Translations under genes and position numbers: made by a program
Shown: in pieces, positions 26,110 to 42,287 of the stretch
How the letters are laid out: every line of letters starts with the position of its first letter
How positions within the stretch are numbered: position 1 is the stretch's first letter
Notes under the pieces: generated by a model
The model's input: only the letters and a program-made list of their open reading frames with translations
Told to the model about the DNA's origin: nothing
Database searches by the model: none
Source of the DNA: a virus
Lineage: Duplodnaviria > Caudoviricetes
Reading direction: 5' to 3' (one strand)
Length of the DNA stretch: 64,000 bases
Virus record (IMG/VR): IMGVR_UViG_3300022602_000025

Positions 26110-26943
26110 ATGACTGACTTTTACCAAACACTCGGAGTTCCAAAAAACGCTAGCGAAGAGGACATTAAAAAGGCCTATAGATCGTTAGCTATGAAACATC
26201 ATCCTGACCGCGGGGGCGATCAGGCTAAATTCCAACAAATTCAAGAAGCCTACGCTACACTTAGCGATCCACAGGCTCGTGCTGAATACGATAATCCTCA
26301 ACCACAATTTGGCCCAGGCGGCCCAGGCGGATTCCAATTTCACTTTGGTCCAGGTGGTGGCGGATTTGAACAGTTCTTTGAACGTAGTCCGTTTGGAGAT
26401 ATATTTGGATTTAGACAACCAATGGGCAATCGCCCAATACAATTACAAACCTCTATTACATTAGAAGATGCTTTTTACGGTAAAGAAATAGTCGCACAGA
26501 TTACTTTACCTAGTGGACGTGATCGTACTATCAATATCAGTATACCAAAAGGTATACATGAAGGCACTACATTACGATTAGCAGGTATGGGGGACGACTC
26601 TATACAAACAGCACCAAAAGGTGATATTCTTCTTAATGTTCATATACAAGATCATCCTACATTTAAACGCCAGGGCGATGACCTTGTTCGTGATTTAGAA
26701 ATTAGTGCCATTGATGCATTGTTAGGTGCTAAAGTAGTTGTAAGTAGTTTAGATGGTAAACAACTTGAAACAGTTATTGATGCAGGTATCCAGCACGATG
26801 CTGTGTTGAGTTTAGGGGGTTATGGTATGCCAAACTTTAACGATCCAACAAGACGTGGACGGCTGTTGGTTAAGATTAAATTGCGTGTACCAAAACTAGA
26901 CGATAATCAAAAACAACAATTAAGAAACCTCAACCTTAAATGA
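26110..26943 (+). CDS. dnaJ: DnaJ/CbpA-type co-chaperone
   Basis: J domain with HPD, G/F-rich linker and DnaJ C-terminal domain; no Zn finger. Confidence 0.92.
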
Positions 26944-27431
26944 ATATTGTAAAATTTCCAGCAGAGATTTTGCGGACAAGGATGCCAGAGTTTGACTTTG
27001 ACAATCCTACTACAGATCCTGTACAATTAGAAAAAGACATGATTGAAGCCATGCTAACATATGATGGGATTGGGCTTGCTGCTAATCAAGTAGGCATCAA
27101 TGCTAGAATGTTTGTTATGGGTCATAGAGATAACCCAGAAAATGCAACAGCATTTTTTAATCCCGTAGTTGTTGCTAATACGGAAGATGTTAAAGATTTA
27201 GAAGAAGGCTGTTTAAGTTTTCCGGGTGTGTTTGTTAATGTTAAACGACCTACCGCTATTAAAGCACGTTGGCAAAACTCTAAAGGTGAAACACTAGAAG
27301 GAGAATTTAGTGGATATGAATGTAAGTGTTTTTTACATGAATTAGACCATTTAGAGGGTATTGTTTTTCAAGATAGAGTAAGTACATTAAAGTGGGCCAT
27401 GGCCGTTAAGAAATCAAAGAAAAGGAAATAA
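26940..27431 (+). CDS. def: peptide deformylase
   Basis: [13 protein letters not shown] and HELDH motifs. Confidence 0.95.
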
Positions 27432-27432
27432 G

Positions 27433-29712: not shown

Positions 29713-30352
29713 ACTATTTTTTAAAAAATGGCCTTATAAAGTAGAAACTAATGCCCCAAAAGCTCATTTAATCAAAGAGTGGGGCATTAGCCGTACTATT
29801 GATATTTGCACGAATACATGGCAACCATTATGGGTCCGTAAGCAACTATCTGAAGATCAAAAATTAAAACTACACAAATATATCTATGATTCTACAGAAT
29901 TCTTAAATTCTGCAGGACAACTTAGATTTGAAGGCGATACTTGTAGTTTCTATACTGACGACTACGAGTTATACAAAAAAATGTGTACAGAAATGTCACC
30001 GTGGGTTGTAAGTATAACCGAACCTGCTAGCGAAGAAGATTTAAAGATACTTCAAGAAAAAAGTAGGTACCGTCTTTGTGATCGATTGCCTTATAACAAA
30101 TACAAGTACAAGGTATACCTCCGTGAACGTATGCCCCAAAATGTTAGATCTAACTTTGCTACATGGTTAGAACACTATTCTGAACAAGTTAAAATGGCTA
30201 AGAATACACATTTTTGGTTGGCTGGAAAAAGAAATTGGATACAAGACCCGTTCCTTTATGTGGTAGATGGCCCTAACCTAAGCATGATTACTATGTTTTT
30301 AGGTGAATATGTTAAAAAAACACAAGAATTTGTCCTAAGAGATATACAATAA
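29690..30352 (+). CDS. hypothetical protein
   Basis: ATG at 29690 overlaps the end of clpA. Confidence 0.65.
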   Translation: MKVYQTNKLFFKKWPYKVETNAPKAHLIKEWGISRTIDICTNTWQPLWVRKQLSEDQKLKLHKYIYDSTEFLNSAGQLRFEGDTCSFYTDDYELYKKMCTEMSPWVVSITEPASEEDLKILQEKSRYRLCDRLPYNKYKYKVYLRERMPQNVRSNFATWLEHYSEQVKMAKNTHFWLAGKRNWIQDPFLYVVDGPNLSMITMFLGEYVKKTQEFVLRDIQ

Positions 30353-30373
30353 ATAGTATATCTAGGACAAATT
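30327..30373 (+). promoter_or_regulatory. late promoter within an RBS-sequestering hairpin
   Basis: 11-bp plus 7-bp stems with TAAATA (30350-30355) in the loop and AGGA in the 3' arm. Confidence 0.7.
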
Positions 30374-30841
30374 ATGCCAGCAACTAGTACGACACTACAA
30401 TTTTACAATCCATACATAACTCGTAATCAGCACGTTTCACAGCCTAGCTTTACGATGCCACAAATGGTCAACGGACAACAAGTTCCGCCTGTGCTAACTG
30501 TGTACAGCGATCGCATAAATGCCGCTGGCTATTACAGTTTAGGCTCTGTACAACACACAATTAGCTATACTATAGAAGGTTCATTTAGAGGAACCATTAC
30601 AATACAATACTCTAATTTTCCTAATCCGCAAGATACTGACTGGACAGATATTCCAGAAACACAAAAATACTACTATGGCCTAGAAACTACGGGTAGTGCA
30701 GGCATTAGCGGCGGGTTTAGTGGTGCGATTAGCCACCCTACACAAACTGATCTCTTTAATTTTGTAGGCAATTACGCTTATCTCCGTGCAAGATTAGACA
30801 TTAGCCAAGGTACTGTAAACACAGTCAGGTACAATTTCTAA
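30374..30841 (+). CDS. late hypothetical (possibly structural) protein
   Basis: Beta-rich composition; late promoter. Confidence 0.65.
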   Translation: MPATSTTLQFYNPYITRNQHVSQPSFTMPQMVNGQQVPPVLTVYSDRINAAGYYSLGSVQHTISYTIEGSFRGTITIQYSNFPNPQDTDWTDIPETQKYYYGLETTGSAGISGGFSGAISHPTQTDLFNFVGNYAYLRARLDISQGTVNTVRYNF

Positions 30842-30892
30842 AAGCTAAAATGCACTAAATATAGCATATTACCTTAACCCTAGCAGACTATT

Positions 30893-31291
30893 ATGAAACT
30901 ATACGAATTTTTTGGCAAAATTGATCGAAGTGTTAATCCAGAGGATAAAGATAAAGATCCTTCTACATTAAATCAAGAAGAAGAACAGCATCTTGCAGAT
31001 GACCTTTTTTGGTTTATAATCGATCACGATGATCTACATAAACAGCACTTTATGCCTAAGGCTAAAGAGCTTAAGGCTGCACACAGCGCAGACAAATCCG
31101 ATAGTACTAAAGATTGGAAACACTGGCTACCAATGGTTAAGGAAGGCTGTATTAGGTACTTTGAACAACATCATGTACCTGGTGATCCTAAAGAAACATT
31201 TAATCAAGAATTTATGAAAACGTTATGCAGACGTTGTGCAGAACACTATCATAAAGATATCATTAAAGGCGAATATAAGTTAGGCCACTAA
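30893..31291 (+). CDS. hypothetical, putative internal head protein
   Basis: MKLYEFF leader; TAAATA at 30856-30861. Confidence 0.6.
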   Translation: MKLYEFFGKIDRSVNPEDKDKDPSTLNQEEEQHLADDLFWFIIDHDDLHKQHFMPKAKELKAAHSADKSDSTKDWKHWLPMVKEGCIRYFEQHHVPGDPKETFNQEFMKTLCRRCAEHYHKDIIKGEYKLGH

Positions 31292-31292
31292 T

Positions 31293-34200
31293 ATGCTTTT
31301 GAATAGTTTATTCCAACCTAAAGAACAAATTAATGAAGCCATCACTGTTGATGAATTCAAAGATATATTAAAGAAGTTCTTGCCCCTTGCTAAAAAGATA
31401 ATTGGTCTAGAAAAACTTCCCACTATCGTTCTTAAAAAAACACTAGCACACGGCGATCAACCAACTATGGGTCGTTTTTATAACGACACTTATACTTTAG
31501 AACTAGCAGTTGCTAATCGTCAACCTGTTGATGCACTGAGAACATTAGCTCACGAGCTAACACATGCCCTACAAGATAGCGAGCATATCGAAATCAGTCC
31601 AGAAACAGGTAGCCCAGAAGAAAACAAAGCGAATGAAATGGCTGGTATTGTTATGCGCCACTTCAATAAGCAATACCCAGAATACTTAAAATACCAATCC
31701 ATTATGGAAGGTGGTAATTTAGAAGTACCTGATGTTGATCAACCAGGTCAATCTCATCAAGCAGATACTATAGAATTAAAAGTACACAACCGTAGTTTCA
31801 TGGTCGGTGTATTAAACAAGTTACTACAAGACATCAATGCGTCTTTCCAAGCACAGTATAATCAACCATTATGGAGTCCTCAGCTGATAAAAGCTGGTAC
31901 ATTCCTAAGTGGTAGCTCATTACACTTCTTCAATGTTAAAGGCATTCCAGACGAACAGTTTGTTGCTAAGAAACCTAAAGTAGGTGACATTGATACACAA
32001 TGCGATAAAGAATTAGAACCACAAGTACAGCAATACTTAACATCTATTGTTGGCAAACAAGTAGGTACAGCCAAGTTCTTAGGATTCAAACCAGGTAATA
32101 ATCAGTTCTCTGGACTGTTCCAACTACAAGATCCACCTGTTAAAGTACAGATTGACTTTGAGTTTGGTCGTTATGATCCTAAGACTAATGCTCCAGACGA
32201 GTGGTATTCATACAGTCATAGTTCAGACTGGTCGGACGTTGAAGCAGGTGTTAAGGGTGTATTCCACAAATACATAGACCGTGCATTACCATACGCTAAG
32301 ACTAGTGAAAAATACGTTGCTCGTGTACTTAAGAAGAGTACAAAGATTAGCGATCAGCCTGTTGTAGATGCTGATTATAGTTTTGCTGTAGCAGGTGGTC
32401 AAGGTGGTGGTGTAAGTGCCAAGTATAAGCCTTATATCGATCCTACAACAGGTGAGCCAATGATGAAAGATGGCATTCCTGTTATGCAGGAGCTACCTCC
32501 TAACCAAAGAGATTACATACAAAATCTAGCACAACAGTTTGAGATCTACTTTGATCGTAAACCAAAAGGCAATGACCTTGAATTACTAAACAGTTTCCAA
32601 GGTACTATACAATTAGCAAACAAATATCTTGATGATCAACAACGTCAAGAAGTTGCTAATCGTTTCTTAGACATTTGTTTTGAGCCGGGCTCACAGATGA
32701 TTACTAAAAACGATCCTGCAAGTGATCGTGAAGCAAAGTTCGCAGCTATTGATCTTATGGTTGAAAGACTAAAGATGACTGATCCTCAAGGATTTAGAAA
32801 ACACGCTGTTGAAATGAGCAAAGCATATGAAGATGCTTTTAGAGTTAAAAAACAACCAATGGCAGAATCTATTTTAAACGAAGCAGATCCTGAACAACCA
32901 CAAGTTAAAGCACAACTACGTAAAGGCATGCCGCATTTACGTGATTTAAAGTCAGCAGACTTTTTAGATTTATTAGATGAACTACATCAAGGTAATGGTA
33001 AGTTTGAATTAAAGAATATTCCACTTAATGTTAAAGTAGACGGCTTTGGTGGACGCTTTGGTAAAAATGCAGAAGGCAAACCTTTCATGGGTACTAGCCG
33101 CACAGAGCCGCGCTATGAAGCAAGTTTTGTAAAATATCATCAACAAAAAGGAACCACTGATCCAGATATACTAGGTCGTGCTCAAATGTTTGATGACTTG
33201 TTTAATGAAATGATGGATGCTATTAAATTAGTAGATAGCAAACTAGGTAAAGATTTCTTAATCAACAAACAAGTAACTTGCGAAGTATTATATCTTCCAT
33301 TCGCTACAGAAACTCCAGAAGGCAAATTAAAGTTTGTTGGCATACACTATGACAAACTACCAGATGGTGTGCAACTAGCCCTAGTTCCTTTCCGTGTAGT
33401 AGAAGGCGACACAGGCGAAGATCTACCTGATTCAGATAAGTTTATTAAACAATTAACTAAAGTAGGTAAAGCAGGTAGTGTAATGTTTATTGACAACAGC
33501 CTAACACAGAATGAAGCGTTAGATGTTACAGCACTTGTACCTCCTATGGAAAACATAGCACAGTTTAAGGCTATGTTAGCAAGCAAGAAACGTGATCAAG
33601 CCGCAGAAGTTAAGGCCGCACTTGAGCCAGTTAAACTTGCTCTTGAAAAAGCAATCATTGAAGATCCAAATATTGTTGGTAAAGATTTATTAGGTAAGAA
33701 TTACGAAGGTATTGTTATTAACAGTCGCCTTGGTCCTATTAAAGTTACTAGTCAAGAACAACGTGATGTTATACAGGCTAAGAAAGATGCTATGGCTAAT
33801 GCTCGTACAGAACGTCCACGCGGTGAATCGAAGACCGCTGTAGTTGCTATTGGTAGTTTTGTTGGCCATAAAGGTCACGAAGAACTGTTTAACTATACAA
33901 TTAACAAAGCAAAACAATTAGGTGGTGATCCTTATTTGTTTATTGGTAATGCTGTAGGTAAAAATGATCCAATTCCTCCAGCTACTAAAGTAGAAACATG
34001 GCACAAGATGTATCCTGAATATGCCGATAACATCAGCACAGTTCAAGAAGGTGGTACACTACTACAAAAGATCAAACACGAATTAATCAATCCGTTACCA
34101 GGCAAACCTCCACGTTACGATAATATTGTTATTATGGTAGGTGAGGATCAAAAAGATATGCCTATCGCTGGCGCACTGATGAAAGCTGTTAACAAGTTCC

Positions 34201-35558
34201 CAGGATATGAACATGTTAATGTTAAATTAGAAGCGACACCGCGTGGCACCGGAATGAGCTTTACTAAGTTGCGTAATATTTTAAAAGATGTTAATGCGAC
34301 TCCAGAAGAACAATTAAAAGTTTGGGAACAAGGGTTCGATGTTAAAAAATTAGGTGCTGAATGGATTAAGCATCTAATGGATTTAACACGTAAAGGAATG
34401 GGCCTAGGTGAACCACACACTAGTCCAAGCGGAGTAAAAACAAATATGCCAAAGAATGACGATGACTATGCAATTAATTACGGTCCTAAAGGTCTTGCTA
34501 AACCAAAACCAGGTCGTGTTTTAAATGCACTAGTAGCACCTAAAGAACCGCAAGCAGAAAGCGTAGATGGTGGTACAGCAGAAATTAAAAAAGAGCCAGT
34601 AGGTGGCGGTAGTTATGTATCAATGAGTCACATGCCTTGGGAAGCGATTGGACCTAATCCACACGATCCTGATCCAATGAATCCGATGATCCATCATAAA
34701 TCAAATCCTGCTGCATTAAAAGATCGTATGTTAAGAGCAAGCGGACAGTTAAAAGATCTAGCGACTCGAGCACAAACAGCAAGTCCAATGGAATGGCAAA
34801 GCATCACTCGTCATTTTAAAGAACTACAAATGAACATTGACGAGATTGAACACGCACTAGCAGAGTTAGCCAAACAAAGACGTAGAGGCGGTGTTCGTAG
34901 TCGTGGCATTGATAAAAACATTGACGAAAAAATGTTGCCAGCTAGTGCATTTGCTGGTAGCAAGAAAAACAAGTTAGGTACAGCAGGTCAACTACGCAAT
35001 CAAAAGCGTGGCGCTCGTGCAGGTGACCTAGTCGGTGGCTCTGCAGAAAGTGTAGAAACAGAATGTGCAGGAGTCGGTACTGTTACAGCACAGAATACAA
35101 CTGTTGATGTTAAGCCAAATACATTAAACAAAGAATTGAAAGCATTTTTCCCTAAACAGAAAAAAGCAAAAACAGAAGCCGCCAATGCTGCACAACAGGC
35201 TGCTATCGCTATCGCTAAAAAGAAAGAAAAAGGTGTTGACGAAGATCAGCGACTAGATCCTAAATGTTGGAAAGGTTATCGCAAGCAAGGCACCAAAATG
35301 AAAGGTGGGACAAGAGTTAATAATTGTGTTAAAATAGGTGAAGCGTGGGAAGATGAGATTTCCAATGCTGTTAGCAAATTACTTGAAAACTTTGCAGATG
35401 GTAAAAATCCTGGACGTAAAGGTTTGGCAAAACGTAGTGGTGTTAATACCAAAGCAAGTGTTAGTGATTTAAGAAAGACAGCTAAACATAGCACAGGCGA
35501 AAAGGCTCGCATGGCACATTGGTTAGCTAATATGAAAGCAGGCAAGGCAAAGAAATGA
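31293..35558 (+). CDS. 1421-aa multidomain polyprotein: HExxH peptidase + Pol-beta-type nucleotidyltransferase + KxDG ligase-like domain + HxGH nucleotidyltransferase + basic peptide modules
   Basis: Motifs HELTH...ENKANEMAG; SGSS..GDID..VQID; VKVDG..EGIV..IKV; GHKGH..SFTKLR. Confidence 0.7.
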   Translation: MLLNSLFQPKEQINEAITVDEFKDILKKFLPLAKKIIGLEKLPTIVLKKTLAHGDQPTMGRFYNDTYTLELAVANRQPVDALRTLAHELTHALQDSEHIEISPETGSPEENKANEMAGIVMRHFNKQYPEYLKYQSIMEGGNLEVPDVDQPGQSHQADTIELKVHNRSFMVGVLNKLLQDINASFQAQYNQPLWSPQLIKAGTFLSGSSLHFFNVKGIPDEQFVAKKPKVGDIDTQCDKELEPQVQQYLTSIVGKQVGTAKFLGFKPGNNQFSGLFQLQDPPVKVQIDFEFGRYDPKTNAPDEWYSYSHSSDWSDVEAGVKGVFHKYIDRALPYAKTSEKYVARVLKKSTKISDQPVVDADYSFAVAGGQGGGVSAKYKPYIDPTTGEPMMKDGIPVMQELPPNQRDYIQNLAQQFEIYFDRKPKGNDLELLNSFQGTIQLANKYLDDQQRQEVANRFLDICFEPGSQMITKNDPASDREAKFAAIDLMVERLKMTDPQGFRKHAVEMSKAYEDAFRVKKQPMAESILNEADPEQPQVKAQLRKGMPHLRDLKSADFLDLLDELHQGNGKFELKNIPLNVKVDGFGGRFGKNAEGKPFMGTSRTEPRYEASFVKYHQQKGTTDPDILGRAQMFDDLFNEMMDAIKLVDSKLGKDFLINKQVTCEVLYLPFATETPEGKLKFVGIHYDKLPDGVQLALVPFRVVEGDTGEDLPDSDKFIKQLTKVGKAGSVMFIDNSLTQNEALDVTALVPPMENIAQFKAMLASKKRDQAAEVKAALEPVKLALEKAIIEDPNIVGKDLLGKNYEGIVINSRLGPIKVTSQEQRDVIQAKKDAMANARTERPRGESKTAVVAIGSFVGHKGHEELFNYTINKAKQLGGDPYLFIGNAVGKNDPIPPATKVETWHKMYPEYADNISTVQEGGTLLQKIKHELINPLPGKPPRYDNIVIMVGEDQKDMPIAGALMKAVNKFPGYEHVNVKLEATPRGTGMSFTKLRNILKDVNATPEEQLKVWEQGFDVKKLGAEWIKHLMDLTRKGMGLGEPHTSPSGVKTNMPKNDDDYAINYGPKGLAKPKPGRVLNALVAPKEPQAESVDGGTAEIKKEPVGGGSYVSMSHMPWEAIGPNPHDPDPMNPMIHHKSNPAALKDRMLRASGQLKDLATRAQTASPMEWQSITRHFKELQMNIDEIEHALAELAKQRRRGGVRSRGIDKNIDEKMLPASAFAGSKKNKLGTAGQLRNQKRGARAGDLVGGSAESVETECAGVGTVTAQNTTVDVKPNTLNKELKAFFPKQKKAKTEAANAAQQAAIAIAKKKEKGVDEDQRLDPKCWKGYRKQGTKMKGGTRVNNCVKIGEAWEDEISNAVSKLLENFADGKNPGRKGLAKRSGVNTKASVSDLRKTAKHSTGEKARMAHWLANMKAGKAKK

Positions 35559-35926
35559 GAGCGAGTGAATTTATAACTGAATCAGCTGCTTGGCAAAAAT
35601 CTAGCGGTAAGAATAAGAACGGCGGCTTAAACAAAAAAGGTGTCGCTAGTTATCGCAGAGAACATCCAGGTAGCCATTTACAAACAGCCGTAACTACTAA
35701 ACCTAGTAAGTTAAAGAAAGGTAGCAAGGCCAGCAAGCGCCGTAAGAGCTTTTGTGCTCGTATGAAAGGTATGAAGAAACACCGCACTGGAGCAAAAACT
35801 AAACGAGATCCAAATAGCCGTATTAATAAATCTCTGCGTAAATGGAACTGTGAAAGTATTGAACAAATGCAACAAATGATCATTGAAGGTGAACAAATGA
35901 TCAATAAGTTAAAACAAATTTTATGA
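35555..35926 (+). CDS. highly basic putative internal protein (DUF6321-like)
   Basis: MRASEFITE leader; K/R-rich with RRKSFCARM and SLRKWNC; family name from memory. Confidence 0.6.
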   Translation: MRASEFITESAAWQKSSGKNKNGGLNKKGVASYRREHPGSHLQTAVTTKPSKLKKGSKASKRRKSFCARMKGMKKHRTGAKTKRDPNSRINKSLRKWNCESIEQMQQMIIEGEQMINKLKQIL

Positions 35927-36243
35927 AACAATACTATATAACATCTGATCATCTTCCGCAGGATAGCGATAATGACGCATATCTTGCACCAGACGATCCT
36001 ATACACGAGCTAAAGGTAGTGCAATACCTAGCAGGGCTTGGTGGTGAAGCACGATTACAGGAATATCGCGCCAAAACCGCACAGCACAACAAGGAAATAA
36101 ATAAAGGTAGTAATGTTTCAACAACAGCGGCTGAAAAAGTTCAGCTGATGAAAGATAATAATATTAAACCAGGATCTCCTGAATATATTAAACTATGGTT
36201 TAGTAAACCATTTTTAACTGGCGAAAAGCCTGTGGGAAAGTAA
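35923..36243 (+). CDS. hypothetical protein
   Basis: Coupled ORF within the late cluster. Confidence 0.6.
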   Translation: MKQYYITSDHLPQDSDNDAYLAPDDPIHELKVVQYLAGLGGEARLQEYRAKTAQHNKEINKGSNVSTTAAEKVQLMKDNNIKPGSPEYIKLWFSKPFLTGEKPVGK

Positions 36244-36636
36244 ATGAGAGCTAGAGAATTCATAAGTGAAAAAGTAAACAAGATTCCTGCGAATCAGCAA
36301 TCTGCTACTCCTGGCATGCGTAGTCATCCAAATCTAGATAACTCTAGTCCATATCACCCATGGCGTTTTTCCGCACACTTTTTAGCTGGCGCAAATGGTG
36401 TCGACGATTATGAACACCAACCAGACCGTGATGGTCCTGCAGGTCAAGCGTTAGTTACAGTTGCATATTCAAAAGGCGATGCTGCTATTATTGATCAAGC
36501 TGAAAAAGCATTCGGCAAAGAAGCAAGGCATACAAAATTATCTCCTCCTGGTTCTAGTGAGGAAAGCGATGTAGGTACAACTAGTCCAGTAGCAAACTGG
36601 ATGAAACCAACGAAAGAAAAGAAAAGTAAAAAATGA
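36244..36636 (+). CDS. hypothetical, putative internal protein
   Basis: MRAREFISE leader. Confidence 0.6.
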   Translation: MRAREFISEKVNKIPANQQSATPGMRSHPNLDNSSPYHPWRFSAHFLAGANGVDDYEHQPDRDGPAGQALVTVAYSKGDAAIIDQAEKAFGKEARHTKLSPPGSSEESDVGTTSPVANWMKPTKEKKSKK

Positions 36637-37751
36637 GTAAACCAGAAGTATACTTAGACCTAGACGGAGTAGTAGCAGACTTTTTTACAGAGTATGCTAA
36701 ACTTGCCGGCGTTGAAAACGGCAACTACAGAGATATCCCCCCAGCAAAAACAGATCCTACACTAGACAAAATGGTAGGTACTGATTTCTTTAATCGTCTG
36801 CCTAAGTGTCCTAACGCTGATCAACTAGTACACATGATCGTAAAACTATACGGAAAATATCATGTGTGCTCAAGTCCCCTACGTGGCGATCATGAAAACT
36901 CAGAAAAATGGAAAAAGGTTTGGATTCAACGTGAATTGAAACCAGGTCCTGTTGATGTAATCATTACACCAAACAAAGCCAAATATGCAAAACAAGCAGA
37001 TGGTACACCTAACATCTTAATTGATGATAGAGGTAGTAATATCTCTGCTTGGGAAGCCGCAGGTGGTATTGGTATTAAGTATCAGGCAGATGAAGATAGT
37101 CTAAGTAAAGTAGTAGACGGATTTACTCGCGCTCGCAAGATTCTTAAAGGTGAAGAAGAACATAAACCACAACAATTAAAAAGCAAAGATCGTAGCTCAG
37201 GAAAACTAATTGCCAAGAGCGGCGACAGCGATGAAGAACCTAGTTCAGCAGCAGATGTACAAGAGAACGATGAGATAAATCCTCGTTTCCAATCTAGACC
37301 AATGATGGCTAAAGAAACTACAAGATATACTGGATCTGGAATACATCCAAAACTAGTCGATGTACTAAAACAAAGAGGTTATAAAGGACCATATCAGCTC
37401 GGTAAATTAAAAAAATGGTTTGTTCATCTTAAAGATGATGTCGGTGCAGAAGCCGATGATGAAATTATGGTTACAGGCAATGACGTCGAGTACGATGAAT
37501 GGGTTTTGAAACCAAAATACGGAATGTATGCGTTTGGTTCAGAAGGCGGATACATGGAAGGTGACGCTAATAAAGTTATCAAAAATACCGCACCATTAGG
37601 CGAGTCAGCAAGCAGTGGAGCTAGCGGAGTAAGCGGAGGAGCGTCTAATTCAGGAACTGGCCCTTACGGTAACGGTTTTGCATTTGGTGGTCCTGGGGCG
37701 GAATCAGTTAGTTCCAAAAAAAAGAAAAAGCCAAAACTTATTAAGAGATAA
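36633..37751 (+). CDS. HAD-family 5'(3')-nucleotidase-like phosphatase with C-terminal extensions
   Basis: YLDLDGVVADF, SSPL and ILIDD motifs; low-complexity and extra domain after aa ~170. Confidence 0.8.
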   Translation: MSKPEVYLDLDGVVADFFTEYAKLAGVENGNYRDIPPAKTDPTLDKMVGTDFFNRLPKCPNADQLVHMIVKLYGKYHVCSSPLRGDHENSEKWKKVWIQRELKPGPVDVIITPNKAKYAKQADGTPNILIDDRGSNISAWEAAGGIGIKYQADEDSLSKVVDGFTRARKILKGEEEHKPQQLKSKDRSSGKLIAKSGDSDEEPSSAADVQENDEINPRFQSRPMMAKETTRYTGSGIHPKLVDVLKQRGYKGPYQLGKLKKWFVHLKDDVGAEADDEIMVTGNDVEYDEWVLKPKYGMYAFGSEGGYMEGDANKVIKNTAPLGESASSGASGVSGGASNSGTGPYGNGFAFGGPGAESVSSKKKKKPKLIKR

Positions 37752-37753
37752 TC

Positions 37754-38398
37754 ATGAACGAAGCTAAAAAAGATCGTAAACGTCCAATATATACAATTAA
37801 ACCTCGTACAGGACACGCACCTACACAAACAGGTGCAGGTGCTCACAAGGATAAAAAGAAAGCTGATAAACAAGGCGATGTAAAGCATAAGAAAAAAGAC
37901 TATGCTGAAGGTCTTGAAGAATTATTATCTAAAATAGTTAAAGAAAATCGCGACATGAATGATCGCGAAGTCAATGGTAACATTATGCCTGCAGAAGGTA
38001 TGGACGAACCAGAAGGCGAAACTCTTAAAAATAGCCTACATACAATTATCCGTGTGGCAACACATCTAGACAAAAGGTTAGATGTTAATGACGATTTCCC
38101 AGAATGGGTAAGCGAAAAGATGGGTGCTATTAAAGGTATGATGGTTAGTGTTATGGATTACTTAATAAGTGATCAAGAAATGTCACAGGACCCAGATGCG
38201 ATGGAAGGTTACGGTTTCGGTGATACACCAAAGCCACAACAAAAGAATACTAAAAATACTTTTACTAAAAAAGTACCACACGGCGGACTACCTGAATCAA
38301 AAGGATGGACACACGATAGTCTAGCAGATAGACTATTTGAACATGAACGCACTTATGAAGAAAAGTTAGCGAACATGCTTAGAAAAATATCAAAGTAA
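37754..38398 (+). CDS. hypothetical modular protein
   Basis: Basic peptide, then acidic helical modules separated by Glu sites. Confidence 0.55.
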   Translation: MNEAKKDRKRPIYTIKPRTGHAPTQTGAGAHKDKKKADKQGDVKHKKKDYAEGLEELLSKIVKENRDMNDREVNGNIMPAEGMDEPEGETLKNSLHTIIRVATHLDKRLDVNDDFPEWVSEKMGAIKGMMVSVMDYLISDQEMSQDPDAMEGYGFGDTPKPQQKNTKNTFTKKVPHGGLPESKGWTHDSLADRLFEHERTYEEKLANMLRKISK

Positions 38399-38901
38399 TG
38401 CACATTTTTGAAGTTGTTTCCTCGGACTACGAAATCCGTAACTATCATAAGTTAGATCGTATCCTTACCAAACTATGTGAAATGGTTGTCGAAGGTAAGA
38501 AAAGCGATAAAGATTATGGTATGGTTGCTGCAGCCGTTTTAGATCCAGATAACAATATAGTAGCCGGACTTAACTATCCTGGTGAAGATGGTAAACGCAT
38601 ACATGCAGAACATGCTGCGATTGAAGCGTATCATAAAGAGTACGGCGACATTCCAGAAGGCAGTATCATCCTAACTACACTAAGTCCATGTAATACTCAT
38701 ATGGATGAGCGTGATGGACCACCATGCGCCGATCTTATTGAACAAGCAGGCGTACTCAAAGTTTATTGCGGTTACATGGACCCTTCTCAAAACCATGGCA
38801 GTAAGGATCACAGACATTTTAATTTGATGGAAACTGAAAATCTCCAAATTAGAGAACTGTGCCAATCTTTCGCTGATACATTCCTAAAAGATTCAAAATA
38901 A
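38398..38901 (+). CDS. zinc-dependent deaminase (RibD/CMP-dCMP deaminase fold)
   Basis: HAE...TTLSPC...PPCADLIEQAGV..VYCGYMDP. Confidence 0.85.
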   Translation: MHIFEVVSSDYEIRNYHKLDRILTKLCEMVVEGKKSDKDYGMVAAAVLDPDNNIVAGLNYPGEDGKRIHAEHAAIEAYHKEYGDIPEGSIILTTLSPCNTHMDERDGPPCADLIEQAGVLKVYCGYMDPSQNHGSKDHRHFNLMETENLQIRELCQSFADTFLKDSK

Positions 38902-38904
38902 TAG

Positions 38905-38933
38905 TTGACACTTGTAGTAAAGTGCTATATAAT
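38905..38933 (+). promoter_or_regulatory. sigma70-type early promoter
   Basis: TTGACA-17nt-TATAAT. Confidence 0.8.
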
Positions 38934-38953
38934 TAGCATACAGGAGAATAATT

Positions 38954-39259
38954 ATGAGCAAAGTATTTGGCGCACCAGAGCAAGCAAAAATCAAACAACT
39001 TATTTCTGAAGGCGTTACAGTCTTACAAGAAATTGAAGATTTGAATGAAGGTCTAAGCGACACTATCAAAGCTGTTGCAGAAGAACTAGAAGTAAAACCA
39101 AGCATTATCCGTAAGGCAATTAAAATTGCACAAAAGGGTGATTGGGATCGTGTATTCACAGAGTTTGATGATCTAGAAACTATTGTTGAAGTTAGCGGCC
39201 ACGCTATTCGTCAAAGTGACTATGACGCAGAAAATCCAAATCGTAGCAACAATGATTGA
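38954..39259 (+). CDS. small dsDNA-binding protein, DsbA/GapR (DUF2312)-like
   Basis: EIEDLNEGLSDTIKAVAEELEVKPSIIRKAIK helical pattern; position next to the polymerase. Confidence 0.5.
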   Translation: MSKVFGAPEQAKIKQLISEGVTVLQEIEDLNEGLSDTIKAVAEELEVKPSIIRKAIKIAQKGDWDRVFTEFDDLETIVEVSGHAIRQSDYDAENPNRSNND

Positions 39260-39551
39260 TGCTATATTTGGACCAACCTTAAAATGGATCAAAGATGATT
39301 TTAGAAGTCATCCTTTTCGCTTCTGTATCGAGCTTCTTGCTTGGGCTATTAGTGTTGGCTGTAGTATCACGATGGCCCTTACAGTCCCAAACCCACCTCT
39401 TCTGGTTCTTTACCCTATTTGGATCAGTGGGTGTGCTATGTACGCTTGGGCTAGTTATACTAGGAAATCATTTGGCATGTTGGCTAACTACATCTTGCTA
39501 GTAAGCATAGATTCTGTTGGTCTGATTAGGATGCTAACTAAATATTTGTGA
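39252..39551 (+). CDS. small membrane protein
   Basis: Three hydrophobic segments; ATG at 39252. Confidence 0.6.
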   Translation: MIDAIFGPTLKWIKDDFRSHPFRFCIELLAWAISVGCSITMALTVPNPPLLVLYPIWISGCAMYAWASYTRKSFGMLANYILLVSIDSVGLIRMLTKYL

Positions 39552-39617
39552 GAAAGGTCCAGCGAGCCATAAGTCGCAATATTGGTATTTGTCAGCCGCA
39601 AATGACATGGAGAAGAT

Positions 39618-42287
39618 ATGAGTTATGTAGATGCCATCTGGAACCGCGATGATGACGTGGTTCGTGTTGTAGAACGTGACCCTAAGAAAGGTCGCATATT
39701 CCAAGAATTCCCCGCACGTTATACTTTCTATTACCCAGACCAACGAGGTAAGTACACATCAATTTATGGTGAGCAACTTTCCAAAGTTACCTGCAAGAAT
39801 TGGAAAGAGTTTATCAAAGAACAAAAGATTCATAGCGGTCACAAGTTATATGAGTCGGACATCAATGCTGTTTTCCGTACACTAGAAGAAAACTATCTAA
39901 ACAAAGATGCTCCAAAACTAAACGTAGCCTTTTTCGATATTGAGGTGGACTTTGATCCAGAGCGTGGATATGCAAGTCCAGAAGATGCGTTCATGCCAAT
40001 TACAGCGATCGCTGTAAAACTACAATGGTTAGATACTATGGTATGTTTGGCACTTCCACCAAAGACTTTAACAATGGCACAGGCCACAGAACTTGTTAAA
40101 GATTTTCCTAATACACATTTGTTTGAAACTGAAGCAGAACTGTTAGAAACATTCTTACAGTTGATCGATGACGCAGATGTTATTAGTGGTTGGAACTCAG
40201 AGGGCTTTGATATCCCGTACACCGTTAATCGTGTAACTAAGGTTCTCTCTAAAGAAGATACTAGACGTTTTTGTTTATGGGATCAATTTCCTAAGAAACG
40301 TGAATACGAAAAGTTTGGTAAGAACGCTGTTACTTACGATTTAGTAGGTCGTGTACACTTAGATAGTCTTGAACTGTATCGCAAGTATACCTATGAAGAA
40401 AGACACAGTTATCGTTTGGATGCTATCGCAGAATATGAATTAGGTCAACGCAAGACACAATATGAAGGTACACTAGATCAGTTATACAACAATGACTTTA
40501 AAAAGTTTATTGAATATAACATCAATGACTGTCAACTTCTTGATGATCTAGATAAGAAATTAAAATTTATTGATCTAGCAAACACACTGGCTCATGAATG
40601 TACAGTATTGCTACAAACAACGATGGGTGCTGTTGCGGTAACTGAGCAGGCTATTATTAATGAAGCCCATAGTAAAGGCTTTATTGTTCCAAGTCGTCCA
40701 CGCAGAGATGACACCGCAGATAACCAAGCGGCTGGTGCGTATGTTGCGTCTCCTAAGAAAGGATTACATGACTGGATTGGTTCAATGGATATTAATTCAC
40801 TGTATCCATCAGCGATTCGTGCCCTTAACATGGGTCCAGAAACTATCGTTGGTCAGTTACGTCCAGATTATACCAAAGAAGAAATTGAAGCCAAGATGGC
40901 TAAAGGTGCCAGCTTCGCAGCTGCTTGGGAAGGTAAGTTCGGAACTAATGAATACGAATTTGTGATGAACAAAGACATTAGTCATGACATTATTGTTGAT
41001 TGGGAAGATGGATCAACTGATGTGTTAAGTGGTGCCCAGATCAATGATGTAATATTTGAAAGTAATCAACCTTGGATGTTATCGGCCAACGGTACAATTT
41101 TCACTTATGAAAAAGAAGGTATTATTCCTGGTTTACTAAAACGTTGGTATGCTGAACGTAAAGAAATGCAGGCCAAATTAAAAGAAGCAATTAAAGCGGA
41201 GAATAAAATTGAAGAAGAATATTGGGATAAGCGACAGCTTGTTAAGAAAATTAATCTTAACAGTCTATACGGTGCTATTCTTAACCCTGGTTGTAGGTTC
41301 TTTGATAAGCGTATTGGCCAATCCACAACTCTTACAGGGCGCAGAATTGCTCGCCATATGGCCGCAAAAGTAAATGAGTATGTAGCAGGTGAATACGACT
41401 ATATTGGTAAGAGCATTATCTATGGTGACACTGACTCTGTATATTTCAGTGCGTGGCCTGTACTAAAGAATGATATCCAAAAAGGACTCATTCCTTGGAA
41501 TAAAGATACTGTTATCCAACTGTATGATCAAATTAGCGATGAAGTAAATGCTACATTCCCTCAGTTCATGTTAGATAGTTTCCACTGTCCAAAGACACGT
41601 GGCGAAGTTATCAAAGCAGGTCGTGAGATTGTTGCTATCAAAGGCTTGTTCATTACTAAGAAACGTTATGCTGTTCTTTATTACGATAAAGAAGGCAAGC
41701 GCCAGGACGTAGAAGGTAAGCCAGGTAAGATCAAAGCTATGGGCTTAGATTTGAAACGTTCAGATACTCCAGAATTTATGCAGAACTTTTTAAGTGAAAT
41801 CTTAGAAAAGGTTTTGAACGGTAGCCAAGAAGAAGAAATTCTAGATCGTATTAGTGAGTTCCGCACTGAATTTAAATCTCGACCAGGTTGGGAAAAAGGT
41901 TCACCAAAACGTGCTAACAACATCACTGACTACGAAGCCAAAGAAAAGAAATTTGGCAAAGCTAACATGCCTGGACATGTTCGTGCAAGTATCAATTGGA
42001 ATACCTTGAAACGTATGCACGGCGACAAATACAGCCAACAGATTGTTGACGGTATGAAAGTTATCGTATGTAAGGTAAAAGACAATCCTTTAGGTTATAC
42101 CAGCGTTGCGTATCCAGTAGACGAAATGCGTTTACCTAAATGGTTCCAGGAATTACCATTTGATCATTCTGAAATGGAAACAACTATTATTAACAATAAG
42201 TTGGAAAACCTAATCGGAGTGCTTGAGTGGGATTTGGAATCAACTACACAAGAAAATACTTTTGGTAGTTTATTCAGTTTCGAGTAA
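39618..42287 (+). CDS. family B DNA polymerase (gp43-like)
   Basis: Exo DIEVD, DINSLYPS, KINLNSLYG, YGDTDS and KKRY motifs. Confidence 0.97.
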   Translation: MSYVDAIWNRDDDVVRVVERDPKKGRIFQEFPARYTFYYPDQRGKYTSIYGEQLSKVTCKNWKEFIKEQKIHSGHKLYESDINAVFRTLEENYLNKDAPKLNVAFFDIEVDFDPERGYASPEDAFMPITAIAVKLQWLDTMVCLALPPKTLTMAQATELVKDFPNTHLFETEAELLETFLQLIDDADVISGWNSEGFDIPYTVNRVTKVLSKEDTRRFCLWDQFPKKREYEKFGKNAVTYDLVGRVHLDSLELYRKYTYEERHSYRLDAIAEYELGQRKTQYEGTLDQLYNNDFKKFIEYNINDCQLLDDLDKKLKFIDLANTLAHECTVLLQTTMGAVAVTEQAIINEAHSKGFIVPSRPRRDDTADNQAAGAYVASPKKGLHDWIGSMDINSLYPSAIRALNMGPETIVGQLRPDYTKEEIEAKMAKGASFAAAWEGKFGTNEYEFVMNKDISHDIIVDWEDGSTDVLSGAQINDVIFESNQPWMLSANGTIFTYEKEGIIPGLLKRWYAERKEMQAKLKEAIKAENKIEEEYWDKRQLVKKINLNSLYGAILNPGCRFFDKRIGQSTTLTGRRIARHMAAKVNEYVAGEYDYIGKSIIYGDTDSVYFSAWPVLKNDIQKGLIPWNKDTVIQLYDQISDEVNATFPQFMLDSFHCPKTRGEVIKAGREIVAIKGLFITKKRYAVLYYDKEGKRQDVEGKPGKIKAMGLDLKRSDTPEFMQNFLSEILEKVLNGSQEEEILDRISEFRTEFKSRPGWEKGSPKRANNITDYEAKEKKFGKANMPGHVRASINWNTLKRMHGDKYSQQIVDGMKVIVCKVKDNPLGYTSVAYPVDEMRLPKWFQELPFDHSEMETTIINNKLENLIGVLEWDLESTTQENTFGSLFSFE

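Follow-up and report, generated by a model that had tools for sequence, protein, structure and literature searches.

At least three products of a block of adjacent genes, positions 30893-38901 of the 64,000-nt phage sequence analysed here (the window; IMG/VR record IMGVR_UViG_3300022602_000025), are best explained, as judged from their sequences, as carrying an N-terminal propeptide like those of the T4 internal proteins: a 1421-aa enzyme, a DUF6321 protein and a 130-aa protein. Given the close match of this N-terminal peptide to the T4 head-loading tag, several adjacent genes of the block probably encode proteins that are packed into the head and injected with the DNA, including a large enzyme of nucleic-acid repair type. 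The block itself is best explained as a single transcription unit, its genes tightly packed, in an uncultured T4-related jumbo phage (about 340-525 kb class).

Organization of the block

The eight ORFs of the block all lie on the + strand in the window ORF list, where all were found with the coordinates and quoted N-termini given in an earlier sequence-only reading of this DNA. Two of them, 35923 (MKQYYITS) and 36633 (MSKPEVY), had been passed over in that reading. The TAAATA reported at 30856 is present (30856-30861, + strand), 37 nt upstream of the first ORF, and is a candidate late-type promoter element by its intergenic density and its spacing to starts: within the window its density in intergenic DNA is 7.6 times that in coding DNA, and it lies 24-37 nt upstream of starts, that of the tail-fibre gene included (TAAATA at 2529, start at 2564). 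The 'late' label given to the cluster has this upstream TAAATA motif as its basis, not the canonical T4 TATAAATA, which occurs only once in the whole window. At the opposite end, a perfect sigma-70 consensus, TTGACA-17-TATAAT (38905-38933, + strand; 12/12 positions match), ranks best among 27 promoter-like sites in 29000-40000 and marks the 3' border of the block, where the next unit, of early type, starts, such that the block is flanked by the TAAATA element on its 5' side and by this promoter on its 3' side.

A T4-type leader at the N-terminus

The strict leader M-R-A-x-E-F-I-x-E opens two of the eight block ORFs, 35555 (MRASEFITE) and 36244 (MRAREFISE), and a looser form opens two more, 30893 and 38398. 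A check for enrichment, run on the 79 N-termini of the window, placed both forms above expectation: the strict form occurs twice against 0.008 expected (P about 3e-5), and is therefore not attributable to chance, and the relaxed form M-x-[ALIVF]-x-[EDQ]-[FLIV]-[FILV] opens 4 of the 79 ORFs, every one within the block, against 0.36 expected (P about 5e-4). The leader M-x-x-x-EF-(I)-x-E that had been proposed as common to the block is complete only in 35555 and 36244 and partial in 30893 (MKLYEFF), and the 'MNE/A' of ORF 37754 (here and below a slash marks the cut position) is too short to have meaning as a leader. The many internal [ILVM]xE junctions that had been remarked upon are at chance level by count, the block having 1.01 [LI]xE per 100 aa and the remainder of the window 0.91, but three module boundaries of the 1421-aa protein fall exactly on such sites.

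The T4 ipII and ipIII products (NC_000866) begin MKTYQEFIAE/A, and comparison with MRASEFITE/S and MRAREFISE/K of the window shows an identical E-F-I-x-E core. The capsid targeting sequence (CTS) of T4 IPI, IPII and IPIII (Mullaney & Black 1996, reviewed in PMC9026906 and PMC3012670) has this same core and an [L/I]-x-Glu end; in T4, packaging needs only the first 10 residues, and processing is controlled by Ile8 and Glu10 (PMC9026906). The propeptide described here likewise consists of a short targeting segment (M-R-A-x-E-F-I in its strict form) ending in [L/I/V]-x-Glu, but the strict leader has 9 residues, one fewer than the T4 MKTYQEFIAE, and T4's Tyr4 is missing.

The leader in other phages

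A scan of IMG/VR with the back-translated leader matched at least 120 loci. At least 143 ORFs of 40 aa or more, from at least 146 matches, are opened by the same 9-mer and, once the leader is stripped, fall into at least 34 unrelated protein clusters, the leader thus being portable. Synonymous codons vary at each fixed leader position among these matches, indicating selection on the peptide. Many leader genes stand as tandem pairs, and complete genomes hold 3-6 of them, compared with 0 for reversed-pattern controls; portability between unrelated proteins and few tagged genes per genome are also properties of the T4 CTS.

Among the leader-bearing contigs, which belong to other phages, every one with a completeness of 43% or more encodes Peptidase_S77, the T4 gp21-type prohead protease, as does one at 29% (8 contigs together), and only fragments 17-35% complete lack it. 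Given that the T4 gp23 site L63-T-E65/A aligns with L-A-E/S and L-K-E/N in the capsid proteins of two leader-bearing genomes, the specificity of the protease is plausibly conserved between T4 and these genomes.

In other T4-like phages, DUF6321, CWxGY and cytidylyltransferase modules sit behind a T4-type 10-mer leader. Smaller T4-like contigs carry homologues of ORFs 36244 and 35923 in the structural module, just upstream of the large terminase, and in cyanophages the DUF6321 module is located between terminase genes. The 9-mer was not found in the closest isolates by polymerase (Phosso, Atu_ph07 and Vibrio 2.275.O). A leader-like start is also present on T4 gp61.1, not known as a head protein, and the motif alone is therefore insufficient proof of packaging.

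The 1421-aa modular protein

Profile searches, a structure model and homologue alignments divide the 1421-aa protein, or 'polyprotein' (31293-35558, + strand), into a propeptide, an HExxH module, a Pol-beta/Pol-X-like nucleotidyltransferase, an ATP-dependent ligase-like domain, a cytidylyltransferase-like domain, a linker and two small basic C-terminal modules, all on the + strand. Homologue N-termini define the propeptide MLLNSLFQPKEQINE (31293-31337), with an I-N-E/A site after residue 15; 120 homologues begin M-[LFINK]-L-x-[EQD]-[LIF]-[FI] and six begin MRANEFLNE, and its targeting segment M-L-L-x-E-L-F is related to the strict leader. Residues 16-136 (31338-31700) form a putative metallopeptidase-like module with HELTH at residues 87-91, matched by sub-threshold Pfam metallopeptidase families only. 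This module is missing in most homologues and elsewhere stands alone as an ORF beginning MRARHFLCE, MKIRDLLFE or MKVQEILTE. It is followed by a predicted prohead-protease site, I137-M138-E139/G140 (31701-31709), located by homologue alignment: the conserved core 'GGN...' comes immediately after [L/I/V]-x-E, the middle residue being free, in 70/70 non-redundant homologues, and one homologue on a relative contig (L024) begins MFLNEIFKRKLTE/GGN at this very boundary.

The first enzymatic domain (31725-32600) is of the Pol-beta superfamily, similar to family X polymerases and terminal nucleotidyltransferases. Its AlphaFold2 model (pLDDT 86.5) matches Pol mu (Z 7.8), TUT7 (Z 7.8), TdT (Z 7.4) and Pol beta (Z 7.4) by VIA-align and the AFDB cluster 'Polymerase nucleotidyl transferase domain' with probability 1.00, and its motifs GS (207-208), DID (232-234) and DFE (288-290) are invariant in alignment A3. 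The second (32871-33797), recognized by fold matches, resembles ATP-dependent RNA/DNA ligases: VIA-align gives Naegleria RNA ligase at Z 10.1 and T4 Rnl2 at Z 8.6, Foldseek gives PDB and AFDB ligase matches with probability up to 1.00, and K, D and G of motif I (K581-V-D-G584) are invariant across 46 sequences. The third (33795-34472) is a cytidylyltransferase/NMNAT-like domain (HxGH: H859-K-G-H862; phrog_3041, E 3.6e-13) with tblastn matches to cyanophage 'cytidyltransferase' genes. One homologue of the polyprotein contains PF00383.

Homologue comparison places a V-D-E/D junction and then a small Cys-containing 'CWKGY' basic module at 35235-35327; such modules are elsewhere found directly behind leaders, as in MKIYEILTE/G..CWPGY (L029) and, on a contig with the 10-mer leader, MKTYQEFISE/AKKCWPGY. 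A further predicted internal cleavage site, L1363-L-E1365/NFADGK..., precedes the C-terminal basic module (35379-35555). Stand-alone homologues of the latter begin MRINELFE/NFADGK, MKVSEILE/NFADGR or MRAAEFVTE/NFADGK, and the last Glu of their leader aligns with the internal L-L-E of the 1421-aa protein. Stand-alone modules show leader-E/module exactly where fusion proteins show internal [L/I]-x-E/module.

The other ORFs of the block

The strict leader MRASEFITE/S (35555-35581) opens a 123-aa basic protein (35555-35926, + strand) that matches DUF6321 (Pfam PF19846) at 65.5 bits, the cut-off being 28.5. DUF6321 fusion proteins have ..LDE/SAAW and ..INE/DWQK in the column of this leader junction, and ORF179 of cyanophage S-CREM1 begins MKTYNDFITE/V. 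The second strict leader, MRAREFISE/K (36244-36270), belongs to a 130-aa protein (36244-36636, + strand) of the largest leader-bearing family, whose 110 metagenomic homologues, none of them named, gave no Pfam match; the AlphaFold2 model of ORF 36244 (pLDDT 66.5) gave no fold match. Its homologues begin M-[RK]-[AI]-x-[ED]-[FI]-[IV]-x-E in 90 of 94 cases, this start having two co-varying forms (MRAxEF.. and MKIx[ED]I..). All 94 retain E9 despite a mean identity of 43%. Between the two lies a 106-aa ORF (35923-36243, + strand; MKQYYITS...) with a conserved, non-leader N-terminus; its homologues begin MKQYRIT, MRQYRVT or MKEYRIT and always adjoin those of ORF 36244.

Four ORFs, all on the + strand, have a weak leader or none. 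The 132-aa ORF 30893-31291, with neither a Pfam nor a PHROG match, begins MKLYEFFGK, a relaxed leader without Glu at position 9; its homologues begin MKLYEFFGH (L024), MKLFEFFSQ (L114) and MRINELCES (L007). The 372-aa product of 36633-37751 combines an HAD 5'-(deoxy)nucleotidase-like N-terminal domain (phrog_2643, E 3.9e-20; Pfam NT5C sub-threshold) with a low-complexity basic tail, and its relatives begin MRLRELEQR.. or MKIIELIES... The 214-aa ORF 37754-38398 (MNEAKK...) has no credible leader, and relatives of its modules begin MKAKEFIPAS or MRAKEFEPKP. A 167-aa protein of cytidine/dCMP-deaminase fold (38398-38901; PF00383, 44.2 bits, cut-off 25) has the weak leader-like start MHIFEVV; its homologues begin MRLSEF.. 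and carry a fusion to DUF6321 (L100) or to the NFADGK module (L016).

DISCUSSION

Capsid targeting and protease trimming are well supported by comparison for ORFs 31293, 35555 and 36244, given the identity of the leader core to that of T4 IPII/IPIII, the portability of the leader, its co-occurrence with the protease, the conserved cut sites and the detection of a leader-bearing enzyme in cyanophage virions. The support is weaker for the remaining ORFs, and the proposal of a leader cut at Glu throughout an 8-kb cargo locus therefore stands only in part: ORFs 36633 and 37754 have no recognizable leader in this phage, although their relatives do, the deaminase start is weak and the N-terminus of ORF 35923 is different. 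The whole T4-type explanation for 30893-38901, comprising propeptides, prohead docking, gp21-type trimming and ejection, is considered reasonably probable.

The virion evidence comes from the S-SZBM1_140 cytidylyltransferase, the sole enzyme detected in CsCl-purified virions of its phage (PMC9146016). It begins MRFRQFIIE/A, a 9-residue leader of the same kind, and, together with S-SCSM1 ORF91 and S-CREM2 (PMC9602691, PMC10665884), shares the HxGH family with residues 835-1060 of the window protein, from which it differs in being single-domain and distant (22% identity over 110 residues). Virion proteomes of cyanomyoviruses repeatedly contain NMNAT/cytidylyltransferase-like proteins (PMC9602691, PMC10665884), and a targeting leader is not mentioned in any of these three papers.

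It is possible that the block enzymes (the Pol-X-like/ligase/cytidylyltransferase protein, the nucleotidase and the deaminase) are ordinary cytoplasmic metabolism or repair genes, and that at most the two small strict-leader proteins are head-bound. The block here neighbours DNA polymerase, clamp and chaperone genes, replication surroundings and not a head module; the nucleotidase lacks a leader in this phage and begins directly at its catalytic DxDG motif; deaminases, nucleotidases and ligases are frequent as cytoplasmic phage enzymes; and cytidylyltransferase in virions might be carry-over, the proteome authors themselves cautioning that abundant enzymes may co-purify (PMC9602691, PMC10665884). 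However, this is unlikely, given that the large protein has a conserved propeptide and an invariant [L/I/V]-x-E/GGN site in all 70 homologues, that relatives of the deaminase and the nucleotidase bear leaders or fusions to the same basic cargo modules, and that the block is one operon downstream of a TAAATA element.

That the leader is a functional peptide with another job, such as recognition by the ClpA-like, DnaJ or deformylase proteins, stability control or oligomerization, its likeness to T4 being convergent, is more improbable still. DnaJ, peptide deformylase and ClpA-like ATPase genes do lie directly upstream of the block, an arrangement retained in a relative contig (L007), but the core and cut-site geometry are those of T4, the terminal Glu and internal L-x-E junctions can replace one another, leader and S77 protease occur together, homologues are located in structural modules and a leader-bearing enzyme was detected in virions. 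A relic of gene-cassette shuffling (a recombination joint or common 5'-end ancestry, the peptide having no role) is scarcely credible, as is plain chance: despite the tandem pairs and the conserved flanks thought to favour ip gene exchange in T-even phages (Repoila et al. 1994, cited in PMC9026906), leader amino acids are fixed where third codon positions are free, E9 is invariant among diverged homologues, the unrelated clusters are many, and expectation and reversed-pattern controls are at or near zero.

Under the T4-type explanation, which takes T4 IPI-III and Alt as its models, the propeptide would dock each protein on the scaffolding core during prohead assembly, and a gp21-type (Peptidase_S77) protease would cut after its Glu. 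The large protein would also be cut at internal L-x-E junctions, releasing small basic modules, and the mature proteins would stay alongside the DNA inside the head and then be ejected into the host. As with the T4 IPs, the leader-bearing genomes encode a gp21-type protease and part of the putative cargo is small and basic (DUF6321, CWKGY and NFADGK modules, probably DNA-associated), whereas very large multi-enzyme proteins, module chains split by internal L-x-E, are also included here; the mature parts have no sequence similarity to IPI-III, and packaging and ejection are here predictions from sequence. The 9-mer tag is sharply defined here, in a lineage other than that of SPN3US and the phiKZ-like phages, whose ejection proteins are not known to have a common short T4-type N-terminal tag. 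These giants do load many ejection or inner-body proteins into the head, which a prohead protease related to that of T4 cleaves after Glu, some of them at several internal sites (PMC5694885, PMC7411985). In phage P1, the large enzyme DarB is sent into the capsid by N-terminal residues that form a portable signal (PMC9024508), as proposed for the window leaders, but the two signals do not resemble each other in sequence, P1 lacks a scaffold/protease system of the T4 type and the Dar proteins have no common consensus. T4 Alt is a packaged ADP-ribosyltransferase trimmed at both ends by gp21 (PMC9026906), and the proposed cargo would, like Alt, include an injected enzyme, albeit one about twice as large, with Pol-X-like, ligase-like and cytidylyltransferase-like chemistry and a different propeptide. 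In summary, the T4-type internal-protein mechanism is already known, and the 9-mer tag and the large modular enzyme cargo differ from T4; immediately upon injection, such an enzyme might act on the ends of nucleic acids or on cofactors of the NAD type.

The leader peptide in the window and in T4

Between 30893 and 38901 the window holds eight plus-strand ORFs that lie almost without gaps, their starts and stops overlapping or abutting: ORF 30893 (132 aa, starting MKLYEFF), ORF 31293 (1421 aa, MLLNSLFQPKEQINE↓A, the arrow marking the predicted cut after Glu), ORF 35555 (123 aa, MRASEFITE↓S), ORF 35923 (106 aa, MKQYYITS), ORF 36244 (130 aa, MRAREFISE↓K), ORF 36633 (372 aa, MSKPEVY), ORF 37754 (214 aa, MNEAKK) and ORF 38398 (167 aa, MHIFEVV). 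The sequence-only reading proposed that this block shares a leader. Such a leader is real and above chance, with the strict form M-[RK]-[AI]-x-[ED]-[FI]-[IVL]-x-E opening 2 of the 79 called N-termini of the window against 0.008 expected from the internal frequency of the pattern (P about 3e-5), but it is limited in this form to ORFs 35555 and 36244; a relaxed seven-residue form opens four of the 79, all within the block, against 0.36 expected. The many internal [ILVM]xE junctions described for the block are no special feature of it: [LI]xE occurs 1.01 times per 100 aa in the block and 0.91 times elsewhere in the window and, given this lack of enrichment, only junctions at module borders count.

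In T4 (NC_000866), ipII and ipIII start MKTYQEFIAE↓A and ipI starts MKTFKEF...ITE↓A. ORFs 35555 and 36244 both start M-R-A-x-E-F-I-x-E, which compared with IPII and IPIII is the same peptide with one residue fewer ahead of the E-F-I-x-E core, and the protein of ORF 31293 (hereafter the large protein) has a related form of 15 (or 139) residues. The predicted ends, I-T-E↓S, I-S-E↓K, I-N-E↓A and I-M-E↓G, are all of the [L/I]-x-Glu type cut by the T4 protease gp21. The T4 internal proteins have propeptides of 10-19 residues; in IPIII the first 10 are enough for packaging, and within the tag residues 4 and 7 serve targeting and residues 8 and 10 gp21 cleavage (PMC9026906). The window leader retains the equivalents of Phe7, Ile8 and Glu10. 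In T4, a protein with the change E10D is packed but stays uncut. By sequence, ORFs 35555 and 36244 carry a T4-type capsid-targeting propeptide and the large protein carries one in a related form.

The same kind of start is found on T4 gene 61.1 (NC_000866 18966-19130; 667-831 of the T4 locus L280, minus strand), a 54-aa hypothetical ORF adjoining the primase gene, which begins MKTFKEFIKE, a full match to the IPII/IPIII-type targeting pattern. The gp61.1 protein is not known as a head protein. It may be a small head protein that has been overlooked, or else it is a warning on calls made from the motif. Given this case, the motif alone is no proof of packaging.

Prohead protease and head module of leader-bearing relatives

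Peptidase_S77, the Pfam family of T4 gp21, was found in every leader-bearing contig with a completeness of 43% or more and in one of 29%, giving eight positive relatives that include all four near-complete genomes (340-525 kb); it was missing only from leader-bearing fragments estimated to be 17-35% complete. Two of these genomes, G001 (module at L150:2674-8652) and G003, have head modules in T4 order, with portal, small ORF, acidic protein, protease, scaffold and capsid protein. The established maturation site of T4 gp23, L63-T-E65↓A, aligns with L-A-E↓S and L-K-E↓N in the capsid proteins of these two genomes, and this fits an L-x-E protease specificity that would be conserved between T4 and them.

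The small ORF between portal and protease occupies the position of T4 gene 67 (L150:4494-4718, the head locus of G001; L151:4310-4531, that of G003). Its start is MKLFEMFDE↓A in one of the two jumbo genomes and MILNELYQK in the other; both starts are leader-like and resemble the MKLYEFF of ORF 30893. Downstream of the capsid gene of G001 (L150:9816-13736) lie four tandem paralogues of about 310 aa each, built from a repeat of ~45 residues (..TNLVSNTGVVATDTTGVGTAR..AAAGYGTDKAIFGYG..).

A portable peptide tag

A scan of IMG/VR with the back-translated 9-mer M-R-A-x-E-F-I-x-E, all synonymous codons being permitted, returned at least 120 loci, and 143 of the 146 listed matches stand at the start of an ORF that is 40 aa or longer; an in-frame stop lies a few codons ahead of almost all of these. 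Among the matches listed, removal of the leader left at least 34 unrelated clusters, of which the family of ORF 36244 is the biggest (78 members among these matches); others comprise DUF6321 proteins, Lys/Arg-rich Gly-Tyr proteins and several proteins of 400-480 aa. All four Ala codons, both Glu, both Phe and all three Ile codons are used, and positions 4, 8 and 10 onward, which flank the fixed ones, vary freely; selection is therefore on the peptide and not on a DNA or RNA signal. Many of the loci carry tagged genes in tandem, two or three at a time. A looser pattern applied to five contigs found one to six tagged genes in each against none with a reversed control, and every match had the form M-R-[AI]-x-E-F-[IVL]-x-E. 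The 9-mer was absent from the closest isolates by polymerase, namely Phosso, Atu_ph07 and Vibrio 2.275.O.

The corresponding scan with the T4-like 10-mer M-K-T-[YF]-x-[EQ]-F-[ILMF]-x-E placed 131 of 134 listed matches at the start of an ORF, in at least 75 clusters that include DUF6321, CWxGY and cytidylyltransferase-type proteins. Three jumbo genomes that use the 9-mer each have one gene of the 10-mer type (G002:159262-159291, MKTFAQYLTE; G003:231338-231367, MKHFREYLLE; G007:260443-260472, MKTFAQYLIE), so a single phage can have leaders of both lengths. In the window itself, an Fe/Mn superoxide dismutase at 115-669 (PF02777, PF00081) has the N-terminus MYNFIRQITE↓G, which falls outside both patterns.

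The constraint on the leader is most visible in the ORF 36244 family, for which 110 metagenomic homologues were found, none of them named. Ninety of the 94 aligned members have the leader, in one of two co-varying versions, MRAxEF[IV]xE (n=44) and MKIx[ED]I[IV]xE (n=46), and E9 is invariant across the 94 homologues at a mean identity of only 43%. Neither ORF 36244 nor a second member of the family (from locus L088) gave a tblastn match among cultured phages, which indicates that no cultured phage carries the family. Its AlphaFold2 model (pLDDT 66.5) had no Foldseek match in the PDB (best E 2.1), and searches of Pfam and PHROGs gave no match for ORFs 30893, 35923, 36244 and 37754. In smaller T4-like contigs, homologues of ORFs 36244 and 35923 sit between the head-closure gene and the large terminase gene, just ahead of the latter. 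The ORF 35923 family (window 35923-36243; in related loci, for example, L011:10405-10797 and L020:10405-10800) has its own conserved start, MKQY[RK]IT, distinct from the leader, and its genes almost always stand directly beside those of the ORF 36244 family, whether the contig is a jumbo or a smaller T4-like one.

The large protein and its module borders

The core of the large protein, residues about 140-835, has 693 homologues at 57-74% identity in proteins of 823-1742 aa, and in 70 of 70 non-redundant homologues it begins 'GGN...' directly after [L/I/V]-x-E. The middle residue ahead of the core is free (LFE, IME, LSE, ISE, LYE, IVE, LNE and others). The distance from this site to the N-terminus is 12-18 residues in most homologues, the N-terminus having the form M-[LFINK]-L-x-[EQD]-[LIF]-[FI], and six homologues start MRANEFLNE; the window copy has an extra HExxH module between its N-terminus and I137-M138-E139↓G140. 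When stand-alone and fused modules are compared, the last Glu of the leader aligns with an internal L-x-E. Thus MRINELFE↓NFADGK, MKVSEILE↓NFADGR and MRAAEFVTE↓NFADGK align with ..SKLLE↓NFADGK of the window, and MRASEFITE↓SAAWQ aligns with ..LDE↓SAAWH of a deaminase-DUF6321 fusion and with ..INE↓DWQK of another fusion. Sites at module borders, with P3 and P1 fixed, P2 free and a sequence interchangeable with the end of a leader, have the look expected of gp21-type sites and are the strongest internal evidence.

The large protein was modelled from 46 homologues (pLDDT 86.5). Residues about 145-436 are predicted to adopt a Pol-beta/family-X or terminal-nucleotidyltransferase fold (AFDB cluster probability 1.00), and the G-[GS], D-x-D and third carboxylate of the Pol-beta superfamily are present on the palm fold as GS 207-208, DID 232-234 and DFE 288-290, all invariant; the structural matches (Pol mu and TUT7, Z 7.8; TdT and Pol beta, Z 7.4) fall in the 'middling' range of 7.4-7.8 in which VIA-align warns of common arrangements. 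Residues about 527-835 form an ATP-dependent RNA/DNA ligase fold in the model (Naegleria RNA ligase, Z 10.1; T4 Rnl2, Z 8.6) with motif I, KxDG, and its catalytic Lys at K581-V-D-G584, K-x-D-G being invariant, and by this fold and motif I the domain belongs to the covalent nucleotidyltransferase superfamily. Sequence searches gave no Pfam or PDB match for it, and querying the PDB with the large protein yielded nothing of use. The region of residues 835-1060 resembles cytidylyltransferases and has H-K-G-H, and the tail consists of two small basic modules. This combination of predicted domains suggests end-healing, sealing or nucleotide-cofactor chemistry, with RNA, DNA and NAD-type cofactors as candidate substrates. 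A 1023-aa 'DNA polymerase beta' (AFDB cluster A0A6C0B6B1) aligns to model residues 39-685, with both the Pol-X-like and the ligase-like domain in the same order, which indicates that the polymerase-ligase pairing also exists outside this phage clade.

Other candidates and their counterparts in cyanophages

ORF 35555 encodes a basic DUF6321 protein (PF19846, 65.5 bits against a cut-off of 28.5, over the full profile 1-72) and ORF 38398 a protein of deaminase fold (PF00383 cytidine/deoxycytidylate deaminase, 44.2 bits against a cut-off of 25). ORF 36633 has a HAD nucleotidase-like domain by phrog_2643 (3.9e-20), with a DxDG motif at residues 9-12 and a Pfam NT5C score of 14.7 bits that is below the cut-off of 24.8. 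In relatives, deaminase and nucleotidase families occur with leaders or fused to the same basic modules; the nucleotidase of the window is without a leader.

In cyanomyoviruses the DUF6321 module forms the C-terminus of a protein encoded between the two terminase genes or is a separate ORF there. The stand-alone DUF6321 protein ORF179 of S-CREM1 starts MKTYNDFITE↓V, and MKSYKQFLSE↓S opens the neighbouring ORF177. Among cyanophage cytidylyltransferases the starts are (V)KSFGQFLTE↓A in S-SSM7, MKKFSAFLTE↓A in Syn33 and S-RIM8, and MRFRQFIIE↓A in S-SZBM1 (ORF140, S-SZBM1_140); the cytidylyltransferase-like domain of the window is distant from the last of these, at 22% identity over 110 residues. 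S-SZBM1_140 was the sole enzyme detected by LC-MS in CsCl-purified virions (PMC9146016, Table 1), and the authors of cyanophage proteomes could not exclude co-purification with virions (PMC9602691, PMC10665884). The literature searched, to which subscription journals contributed little so that an earlier description is possible, held no link between capsid targeting sequences and cyanophages or T4-like jumbo phages and no mention of DUF6321.

The block as a probable transcription unit

The phage is T4-related: the genes of the window include those for a gp43-type DNA polymerase, a clamp loader and a tail fibre. Its polymerase is closest (44-51% identity) to those of jumbo phages in the range of 350-490 kb, among them Phosso, Atu_ph07 and the 121Q group; a megablast search of the block against cultured phages gave no DNA-level match. 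TAAATA is found 37 nt upstream of ORF 30893, and its density in the window is 7.6 times higher between genes than within them. It lies 24-37 nt ahead of gene starts (the 2457-aa tail fibre gene is one case), and intergenic copies ahead of genes stand at 2529, 13599, 20361, 23027, 30350, 30856, 42317, 53581 and 58264. The hexamer probably represents a shortened T4 late promoter in this phage, and it also precedes a gene of the replication region (42345). The canonical T4 late promoter TATAAATA occurs once where seven occurrences would be expected and was rejected as the late signal for this reason, TAAATA being kept as the weaker candidate. A perfect sigma-70 consensus, TTGACA-17-TATAAT, follows directly after the block (38905-38933) and precedes the small conserved ORF 38954 and the DNA polymerase unit. 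With TAAATA upstream and the perfect consensus downstream the block looks like a separate unit, possibly a late one.

Just upstream of the block, 26110-29712 encodes DnaJ (PF00226 and PF01556), a peptide deformylase (PF01327) and a ClpA-like double AAA+ ATPase (phrog_4871), an order that recurs in the related contig L007.

Interpretation

The proposal that a T4-type leader cut at Glu marks the cargo of the block is well supported for the three ORFs with a T4-like start and a conserved [L/I/V]-x-E (31293, 35555 and 36244) and less so for the others; the nucleotidase ORF has no leader. Judged from these features, it is rather likely that the three proteins are packed into the prohead and processed by the S77 protease; for the block as a whole, a role as cargo is distinctly less probable.

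It is tentatively suggested, as a wider reading held with somewhat less than even confidence, that the T4 targeting sequence is a superfamily-wide and sharply defined 'address label' existing in clade-specific versions, and that it here loads a 1421-aa machine that is cut and delivered with the genome. The versions would be the 10-mer M-K-T-[YF]-x-[EQ]-F-[IL]-x-E, the 9-mer M-R-A-x-E-F-[IVL]-x-E and M-K-I-x-[ED]-I-I-x-E, each co-evolving with its scaffold core, and the label would then be no peculiarity of the T-even phages. It would bring the Pol-X-like, ligase and cytidylyltransferase machine into the head, where the prohead protease would cut it at its L-x-E joints into the enzyme and small DNA-binding peptides, and the delivered machine would act on nucleic-acid ends, repairing or modifying them as soon as infection begins.

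Of all phage factors, the proteins carried in the head are the earliest to act in the host; IPI* of T4, for one, disarms a restriction enzyme. To our knowledge, head-carried proteins beyond those of a few model phages have been found only through virion proteomics of cultured isolates. The underlying mechanism is known, and the value of the finding lies in the breadth of the tag and in what it is attached to. If packaged, the Pol-X-like/ligase/cytidylyltransferase enzyme would represent a new kind of head cargo, and the leader would provide new portable tags with which foreign proteins could be loaded into large capsids. The tag would also account for the recurrence of cytidylyltransferase/NMNAT-like enzymes in cyanophage virion proteomes, where contamination had remained possible. 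With so stringent and conserved a tag, any T4-like metagenomic contig would yield a list of candidate injected proteins, a rich source in which to look for anti-defence factors, and if the wider reading is true the injected proteomes of uncultured T4-like phages, cyanophages included, would become readable from sequence and would comprise well over 100 cargo families.
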